From a virus: 11,108 nucleotides of DNA. Location: the UHGV virus genome UHGV-0246901. The stretch is one strand, 5' to 3'. Numbering within the stretch: the stretch's first letter is position 1; every line of letters starts with the position of its first letter. Position numbers and translations under genes: made by a program. Positions 1,751-9,614 of this stretch are shown here, piece by piece. The notes beneath the pieces were generated by a model, which did not search any database, had not been told where the DNA came from, and worked only from the letters and a program-made list of their open reading frames with translations.

Positions 1751-1785
1751 TTGACAAGTCAGGTGTTATAGCTTATTTTTATACT
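1751..1785 (+). promoter_or_regulatory. candidate sigma70-like promoter P2 (TTGACA 1751-1756; -10 TATTTT 1774-1779 at 17 nt, or TATACT 1780-1785 at 23 nt)
   Basis: Consensus -35 hexamer in the same TG-TTGACA context as P1, but no consensus -10 at correct spacing; sits ~40 nt upstream of the operon starting at 1824. Confidence 0.35.
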
Positions 1786-1823
1786 CAATGTAATACAAAA
1801 TTTAATATAACTTTGAGGTCGTT

Positions 1824-2207
1824 ATGAAAAAGATTTTATTAGCTGCTGCAATGGTTATGGCAATGAATTTACCAGTCAATGCAACAGAACTTCCAAATGT
1901 GGACTTATCAGGTGTTCCAGAAGATACTTGCCAGATTGTTAAAGGTGTTGCTCTAGCTAATGGTGAGCTACTTAAACCAATCTCTGAAGAGTCTTTGACA
2001 GAGATGACTGATAAGGTGACTGACTACCAGTATCGTGTTCTTGCAGAGTATTTCCTGCAATCTGCAAACATTAAAGAGAAACACCATGACGATATTGATG
2101 TACAGGCGATGCTCAACCACCGTATCCAGTTTAAAGAAGATTTGATGCAAAAAGCTATGTATGGTGTGGAGTATTTCTTAGAAAACAGAAGCTGCACAGG
2201 TATTTGA
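1824..2207 (+). CDS. small secreted/periplasmic protein (127 aa, predicted signal peptide)
   Basis: GAGG ~5 nt upstream of ATG; N-terminus MKKILLAAAMVMAMNLPVNA has a basic n-region, hydrophobic core and AXA-like VNA cleavage site; mature part ~105 aa with two Cys. Confidence 0.75.
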   Translation: MKKILLAAAMVMAMNLPVNATELPNVDLSGVPEDTCQIVKGVALANGELLKPISEESLTEMTDKVTDYQYRVLAEYFLQSANIKEKHHDDIDVQAMLNHRIQFKEDLMQKAMYGVEYFLENRSCTGI

Positions 2208-2208
2208 T

Positions 2209-2421
2209 ATGGCTCTTAAAAAGTTACATCCCAGAAGCGGTTATGGTAAGATAATTGACGATACAGACGGATTTACAGTCTTTACAGTTATCTGTCAAGA
2301 TGATTCACAGATTGAAAAGGCTCTTGATGATTATCTTAATGATGAACGTGAAAAGGTTAGGGCTACAAACATAGATTCATTGATTGACACTTCACGCAAA
2401 CGGAAGAAGAAAGATGAATGA
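2209..2421 (+). CDS. hypothetical small protein (70 aa, lysine-rich C-terminus)
   Basis: ATG 2 nt after upstream stop; overlaps the next gene. Confidence 0.5.
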   Translation: MALKKLHPRSGYGKIIDDTDGFTVFTVICQDDSQIEKALDDYLNDEREKVRATNIDSLIDTSRKRKKKDE

Positions 2422-2713
2422 GGTTTTTGACCCTTATGCCCCACAAGATGATTGGGAGGCTGATAGAGAGGCTGAAATGGAGAGTTATATTTGTCCAATG
2501 GATGTAGACGAAATGAGAGACTTCGTTGCACATCGTTTTAAGAGAGAGATTAAATCCAGAGGTCTTTCTCAAGAGCAAGTTGCTAAAATTTGTGGTATCT
2601 CTCAGGCTCGTGTATCCAACATAATCCATCTCACTGGTAACGTCTCCCTTGAGTATATGTTGGAAGTATGTGAAAAATTTGGTGTTAATTTCAATTTAAG
2701 GTTGGCAGATTAA
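2414..2713 (+). CDS. XRE (Cro/C1)-type helix-turn-helix DNA-binding protein
   Basis: Contains RGLSQEQVAKICGISQARVSNI, a canonical XRE-family HTH. Track ORF starts at 2384; ATG 2414 (MNEVF..., purine-rich upstream, 8-nt overlap with previous ORF) is an equally plausible start, so the 5' end is uncertain. Confidence 0.7.
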   Translation: MNEVFDPYAPQDDWEADREAEMESYICPMDVDEMRDFVAHRFKREIKSRGLSQEQVAKICGISQARVSNIIHLTGNVSLEYMLEVCEKFGVNFNLRLAD

Positions 2714-2714
2714 T

Positions 2715-3074
2715 ATGAAACGTGAAAACATTATCCACTCTGAAAACTTCGCATTAGGCTTTTATGGCGTACCAACTCACCTTGAAAAGTATTATGGTGT
2801 GAAGATTCTCTCCAATCTCATTATGGCTTACAAAGATGGTAAGATTAAGCATACTGAGAAGAAACGTGTCATGGGCTATATGGCTGTAGGTTCAGCAATC
2901 TCGAACATTAAGCTGGAAACAACTAGCAGTCAGATTGTGAAAGACCACTTCATCAAAGAGCTTTACCAGAATCTTGATGGTGTAGATGTTCAGGCTGTTT
3001 GGTTGGATGTTGATGGTCACAACTACACAAGCTTCGTTTTCAAAAACGATGACATTAAGTGTCTGTTCCCATAA
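2715..3074 (+). CDS. hypothetical protein (119 aa)
   Basis: ATG one nt after upstream TAA (coupled); no recognisable motif. Confidence 0.7.
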   Translation: MKRENIIHSENFALGFYGVPTHLEKYYGVKILSNLIMAYKDGKIKHTEKKRVMGYMAVGSAISNIKLETTSSQIVKDHFIKELYQNLDGVDVQAVWLDVDGHNYTSFVFKNDDIKCLFP

Positions 3075-3087
3075 TAGGTGATTAACT

Positions 3088-3603
3088 ATGATTGATATCT
3101 ACTTACAAGATGCTCATGCAGATTTCCTTAAAACGATGCTTAAAAAGTTTATGGCTTCACAGGGTGATAATGAAGCATCTTTTAAAATAGTCACATGTGG
3201 CGACGAAGCTGGTTTTGTTGAGATTGAGCATGAAGGTACTGGAAAGACTGTTTGTAAGTTACCTGATAGCATGTTCTCTAACACGTTCTTAACGAAGACT
3301 AGTATAAATGTTAAGCTTGTTCCTCAGATTGAAACATACTCTGGTACAGATTACCCTAAAGGCTTTAAGTCACTGATGAAGCACTTCTTAGATGACTTTG
3401 TAAGTAATCTTCTTAGTGAGGTAACAGAAAGCCGTACAATATTAACTGTAGAGAATATCGGAGGAACTATCAGGATTACTTCTGACCGCTACTCTATGAG
3501 TCTCTTCGACTTCGTTCCTAAGAACTTTGATGGTGTTCTGGATGAAGAAGATGACTGTGTAGACTTTATATTGGTTCTTGAACCAGTTTTTGAGGTTAAA
3601 TAA
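3088..3603 (+). CDS. hypothetical acidic protein (171 aa)
   Basis: AGGTGA Shine-Dalgarno ~6 nt upstream; uninterrupted ORF in operon context. Confidence 0.7.
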   Translation: MIDIYLQDAHADFLKTMLKKFMASQGDNEASFKIVTCGDEAGFVEIEHEGTGKTVCKLPDSMFSNTFLTKTSINVKLVPQIETYSGTDYPKGFKSLMKHFLDDFVSNLLSEVTESRTILTVENIGGTIRITSDRYSMSLFDFVPKNFDGVLDEEDDCVDFILVLEPVFEVK

Positions 3604-3864
3604 ATGAAAATTGAACACTGCTATGAGTCTGACGGAACACCTATCCGTTGTCCACATTGTGGGTGTACAGACTTGCAAGGTGAAGTTCATGTGATTGTTA
3701 ATGGTCATATAGCTGAAGAAAGTACTACATGTGTTGGTTGTGGTGAGCAACTATCATTCTGGGCTTATGGTTCATACCAACCTGCACCACACTTAATCTA
3801 CCATAGCAATAAAGCTGTGAAGAATGTTATCAACTGGTTTATTAAGAAAGGATTTACAAAATGA
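3604..3864 (+). CDS. zinc-ribbon-like small protein (86 aa)
   Basis: TAAATG junction with upstream gene; two CxxC pairs (CPHC and CVGC) ~26 aa apart; stop overlaps frd start (ATGA). Confidence 0.7.
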   Translation: MKIEHCYESDGTPIRCPHCGCTDLQGEVHVIVNGHIAEESTTCVGCGEQLSFWAYGSYQPAPHLIYHSNKAVKNVINWFIKKGFTK

Positions 3865-4406
3865 TTAAATTAATCTTTGCAAGTGGTGAAAATGGTGAGT
3901 TTGGTACTCCAACTGGTATGCCGTGGCCTCGACATAAGCAAGATATGCAAGAGTTTAAGAGACTCACTAAAAACAACTTAGTAGTGATGGGTAATGAGAC
4001 TTTCAAGACTCTGGGTAGTAAACCTTTACCAGAACGTGCAAACCTCATCTTAACAAACTCTGTACCATACTTAGGCATAGACTTTGGCAAAGATGAGGTA
4101 ATGTATGCTAAGGCCAGCAAAGAATCCTTTGGAGCATTTTTGAAGTATCTCGATAGCTCTATTGATGAAGATATCTTTGTAATTGGTGGTGCAGGTGTCC
4201 TTGTCAATGCTTTACCATATGCTGGTGTAGTTTTCCATACAGTTTTCCATAAAGTTACTGAAGAGGCCACTGTGTATTTACCTTTTGAAAACTTCTTTGA
4301 GAAGCTGTATGATAACCGTGTATTTACAAAGGTACAGTCAAAACCATCAGAGGATGGTAAAGCAACCTTTGAAATTTATGTTCCACAAGTAAAAGGACAC
4401 TTTTGA
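3861..4406 (+). CDS. frd: dihydrofolate reductase
   Basis: N-terminal MIKLIFA, MPW, FKRLT, VVMG..TF..LG..PLP.R.N.IL and IGG motifs align with bacterial FolA and phage T4 Frd; directly upstream of thymidylate synthase as in T4. Confidence 0.9.
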   Translation: MIKLIFASGENGEFGTPTGMPWPRHKQDMQEFKRLTKNNLVVMGNETFKTLGSKPLPERANLILTNSVPYLGIDFGKDEVMYAKASKESFGAFLKYLDSSIDEDIFVIGGAGVLVNALPYAGVVFHTVFHKVTEEATVYLPFENFFEKLYDNRVFTKVQSKPSEDGKATFEIYVPQVKGHF

Positions 4407-4407
4407 T

Positions 4408-5307
4408 ATGTCACAAGCAGATACAAGTTACAAAAATATCCTGAACCATGTTTTATCCGTTGGTGAACTGCGTACTACAAGAACTGGAGATGTTATCTCT
4501 GCATTTGCTCCACCACAGTTTCGCTTTGATATGCGTACTGGTTTTCCACTCTTAACATCTAAACAGGTGTTTACACGGCAAGTTATTGGGGAAGCTTTAT
4601 GGTTCCTGAACGGTGAGAATAAGCTTGGTGAACTTCGTTACCGTACTTGGGGTGAAAATGATGGGGAACGCTGGACTATCTGGTCAGATGATTTTAAACG
4701 CTGGTTAAGCTCTAATTATTCCTCTGAACAAGACTGGTTAGAGGATGCAGGTGGTAGAATCTACGGGGTTCAGTGGAGAAACTTTGAGGGTCATAATGGT
4801 TGTGTTGTAGACCAGTTAGAAACCTTAGTAACGAAGATGAAAGGTGATATCACAGACCGTTACATGCTTGTTAATGCTTGGAATGCAGCAGATATTTCAG
4901 CTAACTCGATGGCTTTAGCACCTTGCCATGTTCTGTTTCAGATTTATATCACTAATGAAGGTGAAGTTGACTTACAATGGTATCAGCGTTCTGTAGACAC
5001 CTTTTTAGGACTTCCGTTTAATATTGCGTCTTATGGCTTCATCTTAGAAGTTCTTTGTAAGATGACTGGATACACTCCACGATACTTGATAGGTGTCTTT
5101 GGAGATACTCAGATTTATCATAACCATATGAAGCAGGTCTATGAACTGATGAACAATGAAGAGTTTCATGCACCTACTTTTGAGATTGGTGTACAGCTTA
5201 ACACTTTAAGTGACTTAAAACATCTTACTGCAAGTGACTTTATTGGTGGAATTATCAACTACCAACATGCAGGGAAGATTGAAGCACCTCTGTCAGTAGG
5301 CAAGTAA
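4408..5307 (+). CDS. td: thymidylate synthase (ThyA type)
   Basis: RTGD, LWFLNG, NAWN, ALAPCH (catalytic Cys), QRS.D.FLGLPFNIASY and GDTQIYHNH motifs match ThyA-family thymidylate synthase; ORF is uninterrupted. Confidence 0.95.
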   Translation: MSQADTSYKNILNHVLSVGELRTTRTGDVISAFAPPQFRFDMRTGFPLLTSKQVFTRQVIGEALWFLNGENKLGELRYRTWGENDGERWTIWSDDFKRWLSSNYSSEQDWLEDAGGRIYGVQWRNFEGHNGCVVDQLETLVTKMKGDITDRYMLVNAWNAADISANSMALAPCHVLFQIYITNEGEVDLQWYQRSVDTFLGLPFNIASYGFILEVLCKMTGYTPRYLIGVFGDTQIYHNHMKQVYELMNNEEFHAPTFEIGVQLNTLSDLKHLTASDFIGGIINYQHAGKIEAPLSVGK

Positions 5308-5350
5308 AACAAAAAAGGCTCCCGTAAAAAGGAGCCTTAAACTTTATTTT
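5305..5350. terminator. bidirectional rho-independent terminator between convergent operons
   Basis: Stem AAGGCTCC(5315-5322)/GGAGCCTT(5331-5338), 8-nt loop. On the minus strand it is followed by a long T-run (complement of A-rich 5305-5314), a strong terminator for the gene ending at 5344; on the plus strand followed by AAACTTTATTTTT (weaker). Confidence 0.7.
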
Positions 5351-5715
5351 TCAGTATTCTTTGTGTTCTTTTCAGTAATAGCTTGGAGGGCTGATACTGA
5401 TTGAGCCAGATTGTTCACACTGTCAGAAAATTTATCAAGAGTTTTGGTAAGTTTTGCGTTTTCACCCTTAACATTCTCTAACTGAACTTTCTGGTTCTCC
5501 ATCCCTAGCTGAATCAGTCTCATGTCAGACTGTAAATCACGAATAGCTGAATAGTTACTTTTGGAATAATTATCCAACTGCTGTAACTTTGTTGTGACAG
5601 ACACTTCTTGTTTACCACTTGAAACTTGCATCGTGGTATACATCCCAATAACACTAAAAATACCAACTACAATTGCACCAATATTATTTTTAAAAGCTTC
5701 CTCTAGCCACTTCAT
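5344..5715 (-). CDS. membrane-anchored coiled-coil protein (123 aa); possible i-spanin-like or holin/exclusion-type protein
   Basis: N-terminal hydrophobic helix IGAIVVGIFSVIGMYTT followed by Q/L/N/K-rich heptad-like sequence; strong SD GGGGGAG; TAAATG junction with upstream gene. Function is a guess from topology only. Confidence 0.65.
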   Translation of the reverse strand: MKWLEEAFKNNIGAIVVGIFSVIGMYTTMQVSSGKQEVSVTTKLQQLDNYSKSNYSAIRDLQSDMRLIQLGMENQKVQLENVKGENAKLTKTLDKFSDSVNNLAQSVSALQAITEKNTKNTEK

Positions 5716-5910
5716 TTATTTCTCCCCCTTAAAAGCTTTTTCTAAGTTATCTACGAACTCATCATCAATAGGTGTGTCTGTTTTACTCGCAAGGTATCTT
5801 GCAAGCCTAAAGAACACTTTCTCAATCATGTATTCACTTAGAAGGGATAAAATGAGTTTCCAGAAGAAGCTACCTAGATTTTTTAGAAGAATTGCTAGGA
5901 TTGTAGGCAT
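5716..5910 (-). CDS. small membrane protein (64 aa); possible holin-like
   Basis: Hydrophobic segment ILAILLKNLGSFFWKLILSLL and acidic C-terminus; SD GAGGTG ~5 nt upstream; first gene after a sigma70-like promoter. Confidence 0.55.
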   Translation of the reverse strand: MPTILAILLKNLGSFFWKLILSLLSEYMIEKVFFRLARYLASKTDTPIDDEFVDNLEKAFKGEK

Positions 5911-5989: not shown

Positions 5990-8380
5990 TTAAGCAGTTC
6001 TTACCCAAGCCATTAACTTGTAGAACTGGTTAGTAACACTAAATGCTGAACCAGAACCTGTACCACCAGTGTTACCACTAACTGTATGAGTGTGAGCACC
6101 GATACCTACAGAGTGGGTGTGAGCACCAGTGTTACTTGTAGTACCAGACCATGTGTGTGTATGGTTACCAGTTGTGTTAGTGTTAGGGAATTTGTTATCA
6201 GTTCTGTCAAGCCAGTCAAGAGTTCTTGTCTTATTGTTACCAATAGTGGTATATCCGTACTGAGCATCACCACCATTAACCAATAGCAGACCTAAGTGGT
6301 GAGCGTGGTTACCAGCAGCACTTGTTGTACCACTTACAGAGTGAGTATGACCACCAGTGCTATTAGTGTTCTTCGTACCATAATCAAAAGATGAAGTGGT
6401 AGCAGAGAAACTATGGGTGTGTGAAGGCAGATTACCAACAGCTAACGTCACAGAGTCTGAACCACCTGTTGTAGCAACATCTGAACCGTTTGCTGCTGCA
6501 ATCCTGATAGTTCTACCAACACCATTGTTCAGGTACGTCCAAGTTAACCCAGGAAGTGCTGTATTAGGGTCAACGTTGCTGTTAAACCACGTTACAATAC
6601 CTACTGGATAGATTTTATTAAGGTCTGTAGAGTCACTTACTGCCTGTGCAATCTTCTGGTCAGTTTCAGCTTTAGTGTATGCACCAATATCTGAAGGGGT
6701 TGGTTTAAAGGCAGTTGTATAAATCTGTGCTTCTCCGGCATAGTCACCATTTTTGTCATAGGCATAGGTAAATGTTGCCAGTCCATTTGAGCCATACACA
6801 AAAGAGATTCCTCTTGCATGTGCAGCAGTCTTATTAGAGTGAGCAACATGAATTGCCAATTCTTTCAGTCCACTAGTAACCGCATTGTTTCTGACAAAAC
6901 CTGAATATCCAAGATTAAAACCTGAAGGGTTTTCAAGGTTATCTACAGAGACAGTCATTAAGGATTGGTTTAATAACTGAGTTTTAACAAAATATCTAGC
7001 ATCTAAGTTAGACCAATCAGAAGGTTGAACTTGACCAGTAATGGTTAGATTCTTATTAGCCTTAATCGCTGAAGGCATAAGGGTAATTTGAGTCCCAGAG
7101 TAGCTGTTGTTTAAGGCTACATCAGTAGAATTTGTGCCACCTACACCTACCCACCACCTAGATACATTCGCAGTATCAACACCACGGATATATTGTGGCT
7201 GCCCCTGTGTCAAGTTCCTCAATACTAGACCTTCATTGTTAGATACAATAGTCTGCACATTTGTAAAAGTGTTAGCCACATTAACCTTAGCAAGATTACT
7301 CAAAGTAGCTGCTGGAATATATCTAGAGTCGATATTAGCCCAATCAGAAGGTTGGACTTGACCAGTGATTCTAAAATTATTGTTTACTGCGACATGCCCA
7401 TTGTCAAGTCTAAGATAAGAACCATACACATAGTTGCTGATGAATACAGCAGGTGTATTATCACCATTTCCTACATACCACTTACCAGAACCATCATTAG
7501 CTTCGGCTTTAACGTATAGTGCAGCATTTGCTACAGTATTTTTCAACCTTAAAGCAGCACTATCACTGATAATAAGTAGGTTTCTGCTAAACGTGTTAGT
7601 GCCAGTGAAATTGTTATTGGCAGCTAACTGTGCAAATCTCTGATTAGCTGCTGTCTGAGTAAAGTATCTAGCATCTAAGTTAGAGAAGTCAGAAGGTTGC
7701 ACTTGACCATTGATTGATAAAGACCTATTAAAAGAAGCAGCCGTGCCTAGAGTGAGGATGGAACCTAGTTTACTCTCGATTTGAACATCAAGACTACCCC
7801 TAATCAGGTTCCCAATAGCCCAAGTTTTTTCATTGCTTGCATCCCTACCTACAATAGCAGAGTATGCACTATCCCCACTCACAGGAGATTTTAGTGTTAA
7901 CTGTTCCCCATTTGCTACAATGGTCTGTTTAGAGTTAAATGTGTTTGTAACAGCAAGCCTTGCGTATCTTGCATCATTCTCTTCATTAGTTCTCATCCCA
8001 AGTTCATTAGGACTTGGCTTATTCAGAGTATGATAAACAGTTGCCGACCTTGAAGCGTCTGCAATAGTTAGTTTAAGGCCGTTTGCGTTGATTTTAAAAG
8101 TCTTTAAAACATCCCCAATAGTAATCTCAGAAGAGCCTGTAGGGTCAAAGACTGCCTTGCCACCGTAAAGTAACTTAACAATTCCTAAGTCACCCTTCAT
8201 AGTGCTACCAACAATCTGAACAAATCTTTCAAGTTTAAAAGATGCTAAGAAGTCTTGATAGGTCATTCGACGGTCTTCATCACCCAGCATTTCAGGTCTC
8301 TTTTTAACTCTGACATGAAGAAGGTCATCTGAATGGATTGTATCGATTGAGTTTAATTCACTCAACTTGTAATCTGCCAT
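5990..8380 (-). CDS. tail fibre protein (796 aa) with collar-like domain and His-X-His repeats
   Basis: Three internal repeats each ending GQVQPSD(W/F)xN(L/I)DxRY; C-terminal segment resembling the phage tail-collar domain (LPGLTW...GNLPSHTHSF); 6-7 HxH motifs (HTHS, HAHH, HTHT...); C-terminus ...MAWVRTA shared with the 395-aa paralogue. Confidence 0.85.
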   Translation of the reverse strand: MADYKLSELNSIDTIHSDDLLHVRVKKRPEMLGDEDRRMTYQDFLASFKLERFVQIVGSTMKGDLGIVKLLYGGKAVFDPTGSSEITIGDVLKTFKINANGLKLTIADASRSATVYHTLNKPSPNELGMRTNEENDARYARLAVTNTFNSKQTIVANGEQLTLKSPVSGDSAYSAIVGRDASNEKTWAIGNLIRGSLDVQIESKLGSILTLGTAASFNRSLSINGQVQPSDFSNLDARYFTQTAANQRFAQLAANNNFTGTNTFSRNLLIISDSAALRLKNTVANAALYVKAEANDGSGKWYVGNGDNTPAVFISNYVYGSYLRLDNGHVAVNNNFRITGQVQPSDWANIDSRYIPAATLSNLAKVNVANTFTNVQTIVSNNEGLVLRNLTQGQPQYIRGVDTANVSRWWVGVGGTNSTDVALNNSYSGTQITLMPSAIKANKNLTITGQVQPSDWSNLDARYFVKTQLLNQSLMTVSVDNLENPSGFNLGYSGFVRNNAVTSGLKELAIHVAHSNKTAAHARGISFVYGSNGLATFTYAYDKNGDYAGEAQIYTTAFKPTPSDIGAYTKAETDQKIAQAVSDSTDLNKIYPVGIVTWFNSNVDPNTALPGLTWTYLNNGVGRTIRIAAANGSDVATTGGSDSVTLAVGNLPSHTHSFSATTSSFDYGTKNTNSTGGHTHSVSGTTSAAGNHAHHLGLLLVNGGDAQYGYTTIGNNKTRTLDWLDRTDNKFPNTNTTGNHTHTWSGTTSNTGAHTHSVGIGAHTHTVSGNTGGTGSGSAFSVTNQFYKLMAWVRTA
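6990..7716 (-). repeat. three dispersed ~50-bp direct repeats inside the 796-aa tail-fibre gene (about 6990-7045, 7314-7370, 7661-7716)
   Basis: Core CCAATCAGAAGGTTGAACTTGACCAGT (plus strand) recurs at ~335-bp spacing; first and third copies also share ATCTAGCATCTAAGTTAGA. They encode the GQVQPSDW..RY ends of three tandem protein repeats. Confidence 0.7.
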
Positions 8381-8426: not shown

Positions 8427-9614
8427 TTAAGCTGTTCTCTGCCATACATACAGGACGAAGGATGGCTGCTCAATGTTGAAAGCTTGTCCACCACCAACAC
8501 TATTAGTGTTCCCGCTATGCGTATGCTCAGAAGAAGAAACTGTTACAGTGCCATTGTGTGTATGTGAACCAATACCAACTGTGTGGCTGTGAGCACCAAT
8601 ACCAACCGTATGGTTGTGGTTACCAGTTGTATTAGTGGTAACACTGAAAGAGTGGGTGTGTGCACCAGCTACTTCACAGACAGCATCTGCTGAGTACCAT
8701 GATTGGTCATTCCTTGTAGACCAAACCATTGCAGGTCTTTCCGATAAACCACCACCTGCTTCATAGGTCAATCTGTGGTTGTGAGCACCAGCAGAACTTG
8801 TTGACCCACTACCAACATGGTTATGGTTACCAGTCGTGTTAGTGGTCTTAGTTCCATAGTCAAAAGAGTTAGTAGTCTTAGTTCCATAATCAAAAGCTGA
8901 AATTGACACCGTTGCATTATGAGTATGACCACCACCACTAAGAGACACAGAGTGAGAGTGTTGAGGCATGTTATTAACTGACAAAGTGACAGTTGAAGCA
9001 CCAAATACAGAACCTGCTGGTCTTGTGTCAGAGTCATAACCAACCAATGCTCTACCCTTTGAAACTAACTCCCAAGTACCTCCACAAATTAAATATGTAG
9101 AGGGGTTTGCAGAGTTCATGGAAAGATGGATAGTACCTACTGGATAGGAAGCCTGAACAGCCTTGTACAAGTTATTTACTGCTCTTGCTGTAGCGTACTT
9201 ATCTGCATCCTCATTATAAAGGTTAGATGTTGTCCAGTTCTGAACATTACTCAATCCTACCTGTGCCTTAGTTGTATTGTGTGGGTTGCTCTTGTCCTGA
9301 ATATGCTGTTGAACAAGGTTATTAACCTCTTCTGAAGACATAATCTGTAGATTTGCTCTTGCCTCAGCTACATTAACAACATCTGATAAGTTATTTGCAG
9401 CAACTAACTGAAGAGCATTAATAACATTATCTAAACCAATTTGTGTTTTAGTAACACCATGAGGGTTATTTCTTAGGCTTGAGTGTGGAGCAAGTAATTG
9501 CTCAAGAGTACATCTCTTATCCTCAATACCTTGCTTAAGATGGAAGATATCACTAAGGTCAATTGGTAAGGCTGCTTGAGGCAAGGCACTAATTTGAATT
9601 TCACCTACCGCCAT
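8427..9614 (-). CDS. tail fibre protein (395 aa), paralogue of the 796-aa protein
   Basis: N-terminal repeats NPHGVTKTQIGLDNV / NPHNTTKAQVGLSNV (phage tail-fibre repeat-like); collar-like segment ICGGTWELVSKGRALVG...NNMPQHSHSVS; nine HxH motifs; C-terminus ...VWQRTA; SD AGGAG ~8 nt upstream. Confidence 0.85.
   Translation of the reverse strand: MAVGEIQISALPQAALPIDLSDIFHLKQGIEDKRCTLEQLLAPHSSLRNNPHGVTKTQIGLDNVINALQLVAANNLSDVVNVAEARANLQIMSSEEVNNLVQQHIQDKSNPHNTTKAQVGLSNVQNWTTSNLYNEDADKYATARAVNNLYKAVQASYPVGTIHLSMNSANPSTYLICGGTWELVSKGRALVGYDSDTRPAGSVFGASTVTLSVNNMPQHSHSVSLSGGGHTHNATVSISAFDYGTKTTNSFDYGTKTTNTTGNHNHVGSGSTSSAGAHNHRLTYEAGGGLSERPAMVWSTRNDQSWYSADAVCEVAGAHTHSFSVTTNTTGNHNHTVGIGAHSHTVGIGSHTHNGTVTVSSSEHTHSGNTNSVGGGQAFNIEQPSFVLYVWQRTA
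8841..8900 (-). repeat. in-frame 30-bp tandem duplication within the 395-aa tail-fibre gene
   Basis: 8841-8870 and 8871-8900 match at 26 of 30 positions and encode a tandem SFDYGTKTTN repeat; the 796-aa paralogue has a single FDYGTKNTN. Confidence 0.8.

Follow-up and report, generated by a model that had tools for sequence, protein, structure and literature searches.

What do six small genes lying directly upstream of the dihydrofolate reductase (frd) and thymidylate synthase (td) genes do for the phage that carries them, and do they belong together? The six open reading frames (ORFs), here called O1 to O6, lie in an 11,108-nucleotide (nt) stretch of the virus genome UHGV-0246901; we refer to this whole stretch as the window, and all coordinates are positions on its + strand unless stated. 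A first-pass annotation, made from the sequence alone, had described them as translationally coupled genes of an early operon, mostly of unknown function, and as candidates for host takeover or anti-defence. The best overall explanation, to which we assign a probability of roughly 0.55, is that they form a conserved accessory module of the Ounavirinae, laid out as a single eight-gene unit with frd and td, in which roles can be proposed for O3, O6 and O1. All six small ORFs are present on the + strand where they had been noted, as both the ORF table and the sequence confirm (lengths in amino acids, aa):

1824-2207, + strand: O1, 127 aa, predicted exported protein (phrog_4332)
2209-2421, + strand: O2, 70 aa, orphan (phrog_4473)
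2414-2713, + strand: O3, 99 aa, XRE-family protein with an HTH_3 domain (phrog_1373)
2715-3074, + strand: O4, 119 aa, orphan (phrog_4116)
3088-3603, + strand: O5, 171 aa, acidic orphan (phrog_4422)
3604-3864, + strand: O6, 86 aa, zinc ribbon of the CxxC...CxxC type (phrog_2993)
3861-4406, + strand: frd, dihydrofolate reductase, sharing an ATGA overlap with O6
4408-5307, + strand: td, thymidylate synthase, the last gene of the unit

By megablast the whole 11.1-kb window belongs to Felixounavirus (Ounavirinae, Felix O1-like myoviruses) and represents a Felix O1-like coliphage; 270 records matched, the best of them, from phages of Escherichia coli and Salmonella, at 92-96% identity. The gene order, read from the annotated relative VpaE1, is DNA ligase, two small ORFs, O1-O6, dihydrofolate reductase and thymidylate synthase, followed by holin-like and tail-fibre genes in divergent orientation. 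The counterparts of O1-O6 are ORF87 to ORF82 in Felix O1, bas63_0037 to bas63_0032 (g37-g32) in Bas63 (JohannRWettstein) and agp037 to agp031 in SUSP1, the last series including one extra gene, agp033. These are direct orthologues that share their order and their place upstream of frd-td and are annotated as hypothetical; the block in the window differs from them in no substantive way, and the window also has a two-ORF cassette, U1-U2, between the ligase gene and O1. The block is made of ordinary, already catalogued phage accessory genes, no more than two of whose products offer any clue to function, and the observation that singled it out is itself correct.

The distribution of the block is narrow and its order stable. 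In a collection of 50,697 records, tblastn confined O1 and O5 to one shared set of 259 phage records, about 215 of them Felixounavirus and about 44 Mooglevirus or Suspvirus. In profile searches of 5.8 billion proteins O5 gave 20 clusters and O1 gave 15, without variation in length, and every named member comes from a phage of these three genera. One O5 homologue (P0004) is named as an E. coli plasmid protein and lies on an 88-kb contig, which may be the genome of a Felix O1-like phage perhaps deposited as a plasmid. Orthologues of O1-O6 are 89-100% identical at the protein level within Felixounavirus; between genera, identity falls to about 33% for O1, 35-41% for O5, 56-69% for O6, 66-71% for O4 and about three quarters for O3. 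Mooglevirus and Suspvirus carry an extra gene of 166-167 aa (phrog_9143) between O4 and O5, overlapping the end of O4 (3261-3764 in locus L003, 2981-3481 in L005, 2987-3490 in L006 and 4664-5164 in L007, which is SUSP2). Neither a relation or paralogy between this gene and O1-O6 nor paralogy among O1-O6 themselves was detected.

Pairwise ratios of nonsynonymous to synonymous substitution (dN/dS), pooled over nine Felixounavirus genomes, are 0.06 for O1, 0.06 for O2, 0.07 for O3, 0.03 for O4, 0.16 for O5 and 0.13 for O6, compared with 0.10 for frd and 0.04 for td in the same genomes. Because these ratios lie between 0.03 and 0.16 and the gene order is kept in about 259 phage records across Felixounavirus, Mooglevirus and Suspvirus, O1-O6 are not chance ORFs: all six are real genes under purifying selection. 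The start of O3 is the one boundary on which records diverge, since some (Felix O1, VpaE1) begin the gene at TTG 2384 and most annotate the 300-nt version that begins at ATG 2414. We place it at ATG 2414, because the counterpart of the TTG codon is a TAG stop in Michonne and TCG in Silverhawkium; the overlap of O2 with O3 (ATGAATGA) and the O3 N-terminus MNEVFDPY are both conserved.

The junctions are those of a translationally coupled operon, with distances of +1, -8, +1, +13, 0, -4 and +1 nt from O1 to td and no internal terminator-like site. O1 and O2 are joined as TGA-T-ATG and O3 and O4 as TAA-T-ATG, each with a gap of 1 nt; O2 and O3 overlap by the 8 nt given above; O5 and O6 abut in TAAATG; O6 and frd overlap by the 4 nt of ATGA, and frd and td are again 1 nt apart. 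A purine-rich stretch resembling a Shine-Dalgarno sequence precedes every start codon. The earlier description of abutting or overlapping stops and starts is therefore right for most junctions and wrong for O4/O5, which are separated by a gap of 13 nt with a Shine-Dalgarno sequence of its own (AGGTGA).

Whether the genes would also be read as one message depends on the signals around them, of which the following matter here:

29-56, + strand: near-consensus sigma-70-like promoter, TTGACA-N16-TATACT, 11/12 consensus matches
1341-1356, + strand: intrinsic-terminator-like hairpin AGCCTCTTCGGAGGCT followed by a T-run, ending the upstream U1-U2 cassette
1751-1779, + strand: sigma-70-like promoter P2, TTGACA, 17-nt spacer, TATTTT, 10/12 consensus matches, directly upstream of O1
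1793-1808: A/T-rich imperfect palindrome ATACAAAATTTAATAT between the -10 hexamer and the O1 Shine-Dalgarno sequence, candidate operator for O3
5315-5338: bidirectional terminator-like hairpin closing the unit after td, equal to t79/t80 of Felix O1

In a consensus scan of the window, the only terminator-like hairpins on the + strand are those at 1341-1356 and 5315-5338, with none between 1357 and 5314, and promoter-like matches inside 1780-5315 are no more frequent than in shuffled sequence. With sigma-70-like promoters upstream and neither terminator-like sites nor above-chance promoters inside, the block is indeed laid out as one unit with frd-td, as had been proposed. O1-O6, frd and td would most likely form one eight-gene transcription unit, which host RNA polymerase would read from the sigma-70-type promoter at 1751-1779 and leave at 5315-5338; Felix O1 has no RNA polymerase gene of its own. 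In Bas63, TTGACA-N16-TATACT occurs just twice genome-wide, once as the promoter upstream of the block. P2 itself overlaps an inverted repeat (1732-1778, + strand; 19-nt arms, 9-nt spacer) that holds the -35 hexamer of the O1 promoter within its loop. As RNA this repeat folds with -17.8 kcal/mol (z = -4.3); a U-rich run comes next, in a stretch reaching to 1790, and the repeat may act as a terminator against upstream read-through with a promoter built in. Scans with Rfam and for tRNAs returned nothing relevant in the window.

All timing data come from Felix O1. In end-point reverse-transcription PCR of infected S. Typhi, a coarse dataset in which ORFs were assayed individually (80, 81, 83, 84 and 87 were positive; 82, 85 and 86 were left out), ORF81 (frd) reached its maximum at 10 min, and ORFs 80 (td), 83 (O5), 84 (O4) and 87 (O1) reached theirs at 25 min, in the ‘middle’ class (PMC3185647). 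On these coarse data, expression is delayed-early to middle and not immediate-early; nor is it late-only, the Felix O1 ORFs peaking between 10 and 25 min. The label ‘early operon’ thus holds in part: host sigma-70-like promoters are in place (10/12 and 11/12 matches) and late-only expression was not seen, and the maxima at 10-25 min are later than the label implies.

In CRISPRi-ART, SUSP1 agp031-037 together with agp030 (frd) and agp029 (td) were all scored ‘Not Fit’, that is, dispensable in a laboratory strain (PMC11879866). The block is conserved and selected, yet dispensable on laboratory E. coli, which is the profile of conditionally useful host-interaction genes. Dispensability cannot, by itself, separate a host-interaction from a metabolic reading, because frd and td are also ‘Not Fit’.

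A metabolic reading is the principal rival to the accessory module: some of the proteins, especially O4, O5 and O6, would be accessory or scaffold parts of the phage deoxynucleotide-synthesis machinery. Position speaks for it, since O6 overlaps frd through ATGA, frd-td closes the whole block, three genera preserve the order O4-(X)-O5-O6-frd-td (X being the extra gene phrog_9143), and in T4 the uncharacterised frd.2, which adjoins frd, was scored ‘Fit’. Content speaks against it: O4-O6 have no similarity to nucleotide-metabolism proteins in Pfam, NCBIfam or the PDB, O5 is only 35-41% identical between genera and is split into two ORFs in SUSP2, and an unrelated gene has been inserted between O4 and O5 in Mooglevirus and Suspvirus. 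We consider this reading doubtful. In T4 the same niche, immediately upstream of frd-td, is filled by the small uncharacterised ORFs frd.1-frd.3, whose PHROGs (phrog_1254, 622 and 1764) differ from the block's (4332, 4473, 1373, 4116, 4422 and 2993), with no homology indicated.

Returning to the accessory module, the best supported of the proposed roles is that of O3. The prediction of an XRE-type helix-turn-helix (HTH) protein is borne out by Pfam, in which residues 43-93 of O3 match HTH_3 (PF01381) with 39.7 bits (gathering cut-off 23; E = 4.9e-10). The recognition helix is conserved between genera, and so is an acidic N-terminal region of about 30-40 aa that is near-invariant and matches nothing. 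O3 also weakly matches antitoxin models as well as the ‘control protein’ models of PADLOC. O3 shares the HTH_3 domain with small XRE/Cro-type regulators such as restriction-modification controllers and the antitoxins PezA and HigA, and differs from them in its acidic N-terminal extension, its position in mid-operon, its residence in a strictly lytic phage and an operator that is only a candidate. That candidate, the palindrome at 1793-1808, has a single occurrence across the 87 kb of Bas63 when up to 2 mismatches are allowed, and each of the three genera has a related palindromic element in this position despite two different promoter contexts. The most economical reading of this arrangement is that O3 is a small local repressor that probably binds the palindrome and so limits its own operon. 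Two database labels for genes of the block look like annotation errors: in the record of phage D1-2 (L014, 2191-2490) the 99-aa HTH protein O3 is called ‘trifunctional NAD biosynthesis/regulator protein NadR’, and in KhF1 (KT184313) one ORF of the block is called ‘Walker B motif’.

O1, third in order of support, appears to act outside the cytoplasm. By inspection, its residues 1-20 read as a signal peptide, MKK-ILLAAAMVMAMNLP-VNA↓TE in the window (the arrow marks the cleavage site), with the basic n-region, hydrophobic h-region, small residues at -3 and -1 and absence of a lipobox cysteine that characterize substrates of Sec and signal peptidase I. In the other genera the site is AAA↓M or ASA↓M, and the pattern holds in full-length family members, which agrees with the earlier prediction of a secreted protein. 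One homologue, P0029 of Shigella phage vB_SflM_004, is chimeric, joining a Felixounavirus-type signal peptide to a Mooglevirus-type mature domain. The mature protein is modelled, from a 16-member family alignment, as a three-helix bundle with long helices (mean predicted local distance difference test score, pLDDT, 94; predicted template-modelling score, pTM, 0.85), and a fold search returned nothing but generic three-helix bundles. Two cysteines, Cys36 and Cys124, are invariant (16/16 family members) and in the model are positioned such that they could link the first helix to the C-terminus. O1 would accordingly be pictured as a periplasmic, disulfide-stapled three-helix bundle with a role at the envelope, such as excluding superinfecting phages or setting the time of lysis.

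Taken further, this picture becomes a second rival, in which O1 would be a counterpart of T4 Spackle (Sp) or RI, working in superinfection exclusion or lysis inhibition, and the remainder of the block would be unrelated cargo. T4 Spackle and RI are, like O1, small helical proteins that have a signal sequence and are made before lysis; Sp, listed as ‘spackle periplasmic’ in the T4 record, shares these general properties with an O1 that is small, exported, helical, made before the late genes and endowed with a conserved cysteine pair that could tie its first helix to its C-terminus. We regard this rival, too, as unlikely.

O6 comes second in support, after O3. It carries a zinc ribbon: across 104 homologues C16, C19 and C43 are invariant and C46 is present in at least 90%, giving the two CxxC pairs that the first-pass annotation had pointed out. 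An exhaustive phmmer search of 1.84 billion representatives found 217 relatives at E <= 0.001, and among the matches listed nearly all are 55-150 aa long and align to O6 residues 3-61. Beyond the cysteines, O6 has a conserved SFWAYGSY motif ((Y/F)WAYG in the family) and a C-terminal helix. Its closest recognisable analogue is Lar/RalR of the E. coli Rac prophage (PF14354, TIGR03655), with which it shares a ribbon, CP(F/H)CGC ... C(x)GC, of similar spacing; the conserved SFWAYGSY.P motif and the C-terminal amphipathic segment of O6 are absent from Lar, and O6 stays below the curated cut-offs. Profile-profile alignment (hhalign) of O6 with the founding Lar (E. coli K-12 b1348) gave 70.7% probability (E = 3.8e-5) over 34 ribbon columns only. 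O6 is thus remotely Lar-like, at the level of the ribbon, and not a demonstrated family member. A comparison with another zinc-binding protein of Rac, YdaE, showed no relation.

The functional hint comes from Bas63, in which gene 32, described as Lar-like, was reported to be required less strictly in DH10B than in three further E. coli strains, with speculation on type IV restriction (PMC11482910). By locus tag (bas63_0032), gene 32 is the O6 orthologue, and the numbering of that paper agrees with the locus tags for g79, g80, g84 and g85. This strain dependence is the only functional hint and serves as a lead only. We propose that O6 belongs to a widespread, uncurated family of zinc ribbons distantly related to that of Lar/RalR and may have as its target a host factor that varies between strains, plausibly one with a nuclease or restriction role. 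That O6 is instead a small DNA-damaging, DNase-type protein that attacks host DNA as RalR does, rather than alleviating restriction, is quite improbable. In its favour, b1348 is now named ‘endodeoxyribonuclease toxin RalR’ in the E. coli K-12 record (formerly Lar), RalR is reported to be a non-specific endodeoxyribonuclease (PMC4041452), and O6 aligns with its ribbon and is encoded in a nucleotide-supply operon; against it, the likeness spans just those 34 columns of generic CxxC...CxxC ribbon, under family thresholds, and the conserved C-terminal extension of O6 is absent from Lar/RalR.

A number of points weigh against the accessory-module reading and the roles proposed within it. Co-transcription, the transcription start and the binding of DNA by O3 are predictions, and the palindrome at 1793-1808 could instead be an AU-rich translation enhancer. 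The authors of the CRISPRi-ART study acknowledge false negatives (PMC11879866), which bears on the dispensability of the block. For O6, the scores against Lar (PF14354, 13.5 bits; cut-off 28.6) and TIGR03655 (18.7 bits; cut-off 39.6) fall short, and among the 104 family members 3 touch PF14354 (Lar_restr_allev), 6 TIGR03655 and 11 NF047912, all weakly. The gene 32 phenotype is not specific, because DH10B differs from other strains at many loci, and the identification of the gene by number is exposed to an inconsistency in the same paper, whose ‘gene 74’ (ribonucleotide reductase activator) is off by one, NrdG being bas63_0073. Bas63 has also been called remarkably sensitive to several restriction-modification systems, a point against O6 having strong anti-restriction activity. 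For O1, homology to T4 Spackle or RI was considered and rejected, with no sequence or profile homology found and a generic fold.

The three proteins that had been listed as lacking a recognisable motif, O2, O4 and O5, match nothing in Pfam, NCBIfam, PADLOC or the sequences of the PDB, and stand last in support. They are orphans limited to the three Ounavirinae genera and would be lineage-restricted cytoplasmic proteins with no inferable mechanism. O2 has a conserved basic C-terminal tail, RATNIDSLIDTSRKRKKKDE, and O4 is strongly conserved in its C-terminal half. O5 is acidic (isoelectric point 4.5) and one of the two fastest-evolving genes of the block; it is modelled as a duplicated unit of one helix plus four strands (pLDDT 78, pTM 0.67; 21 sequences), and its fold has no informative relative in the PDB or BFVD. 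In SUSP2 (L007, 5166-5683) the O5 orthologue is annotated as two ORFs of 303 and 207 nt, which could reflect a frameshift, a pseudogene or a sequencing error; either of the first two would fit with the dispensability of O5.

Where does this leave the suggestion that the block serves host takeover or anti-defence? Such a role is neither supported nor excluded, and the block stays a candidate only. No known anti-defence family was recognised by PADLOC, which returned only the weak HTH ‘control protein’ matches of O3 and a single marginal match of O1 (PDC-M61B, E = 0.014), and the block proteins searched have neither sequence relatives in the PDB nor informative fold matches. More generally, no function for O1, O2, O4 or O5 emerged from Pfam, PHROGs, NCBIfam or PADLOC, PDB sequence searches with single sequences and cross-genus profiles gave nothing credible for the block proteins, and confident homology to housekeeping proteins was not found. 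None of the block's genes is named in the Bas63 paper as counter or trigger for the defence systems tested there (PMC11482910), and a literature search for Felixounavirus RNA sequencing or anti-defence roles of these genes found nothing beyond PhageMaP and CRISPRi-ART. It is conceivable, and we hold it only tentatively, that at least one of the orphans (O5, O4 or O2) or the exported O1 counters a natural host barrier missing from laboratory strains, which could be an anti-phage defence system or, for O1, the entry of a superinfecting phage. If true, this would add a new inhibitor family, and the block would act as a counter-defence cassette that regulates itself through the repressor O3 and rides on the frd-td operon.

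The block leaves current understanding of phage biology unchanged, and its value is mainly practical. Felix O1-like phages are used in the typing, biocontrol and therapy of Salmonella and E. coli, and most of their genes are unannotated. A block that is conserved, selected and dispensable offers a safe site for engineering, and its genes make a short list for counter-defence and exclusion screens, with modest leads in O6, O1 and O3.

The region upstream of O1 has a history of its own. The U1-U2 cassette (284-1329; phrog_4652 and phrog_5926) is 95-96% identical at the nucleotide level to its counterparts in Silverhawkium (Mooglevirus) and SUSP2 (Suspvirus), whereas the adjoining O1, O3 and O4 are only 51-79% identical in the same comparison; it is absent from Felix O1, Bas63, Michonne and EcSzw_1. 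The same set of modules makes up both the opening 230 nt of the window and the 490 non-coding nt ahead of O1 (cassette flanks 1-283 and 1330-1823); it comprises a run rich in G and T, a hairpin whose A-rich loop is conserved, and further hairpins. This suggests that the cassette has been exchanged between genera and gained or lost via recombination between the flanking repeats. Such exchange largely explains why the 87-nt core in which P2 sits is identical in Felixounavirus, Silverhawkium and SUSP2, and the idea that the promoter module is under extreme constraint was dropped in its favour. SUSP1 agp038, the orthologue of the second cassette ORF, is ‘Semi-Fit’ in CRISPRi-ART (PMC11879866).

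The hairpin of these flanks is present in four copies (196-222, 1451-1477, 1579-1604 and 1705-1732), each after a GGTATGG(G/A) run. The loop, AGCyWyATwAAAAwT, is conserved and the 6-bp stems covary (TGGTAG/CTACCA, TAATCG/CGATTA, AGTCTC/GAGACT and TGGCAG/CTGCCA); the copies have no Rfam match and their individual folding z-scores are weak (-0.1 to -1.7). Bas63 has a single copy genome-wide, at the same place upstream of O1. Between 1330 and 1700 the non-coding sequence is G/T-rich, with a GC skew of up to +0.37 and degenerate GGTAAGG/GGTATGG repeats, and contains an 86-nt unit twice (at 1360 and 1609; 74% identity), each beginning with TTTTAAAAGGTCTTTAAA.

Beyond td, on the - strand, a 64-aa ORF (5716-5910) adjoins the holin-like gene (5344-5715); its positional counterpart in SUSP1, agp027, is ‘Fit’, that is, important, in CRISPRi-ART (PMC11879866). 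Both tail-fibre proteins (5990-8380 and 8427-9614, - strand) end in long His-rich repeats of the form GxHxHxV(S/G)G, such as GGHTHSVSGTT and GNHNHTVGIGAHSHTVG, and nucleotide repeats common to both tail-fibre genes were reported in the Felix O1 paper (PMC3185647).

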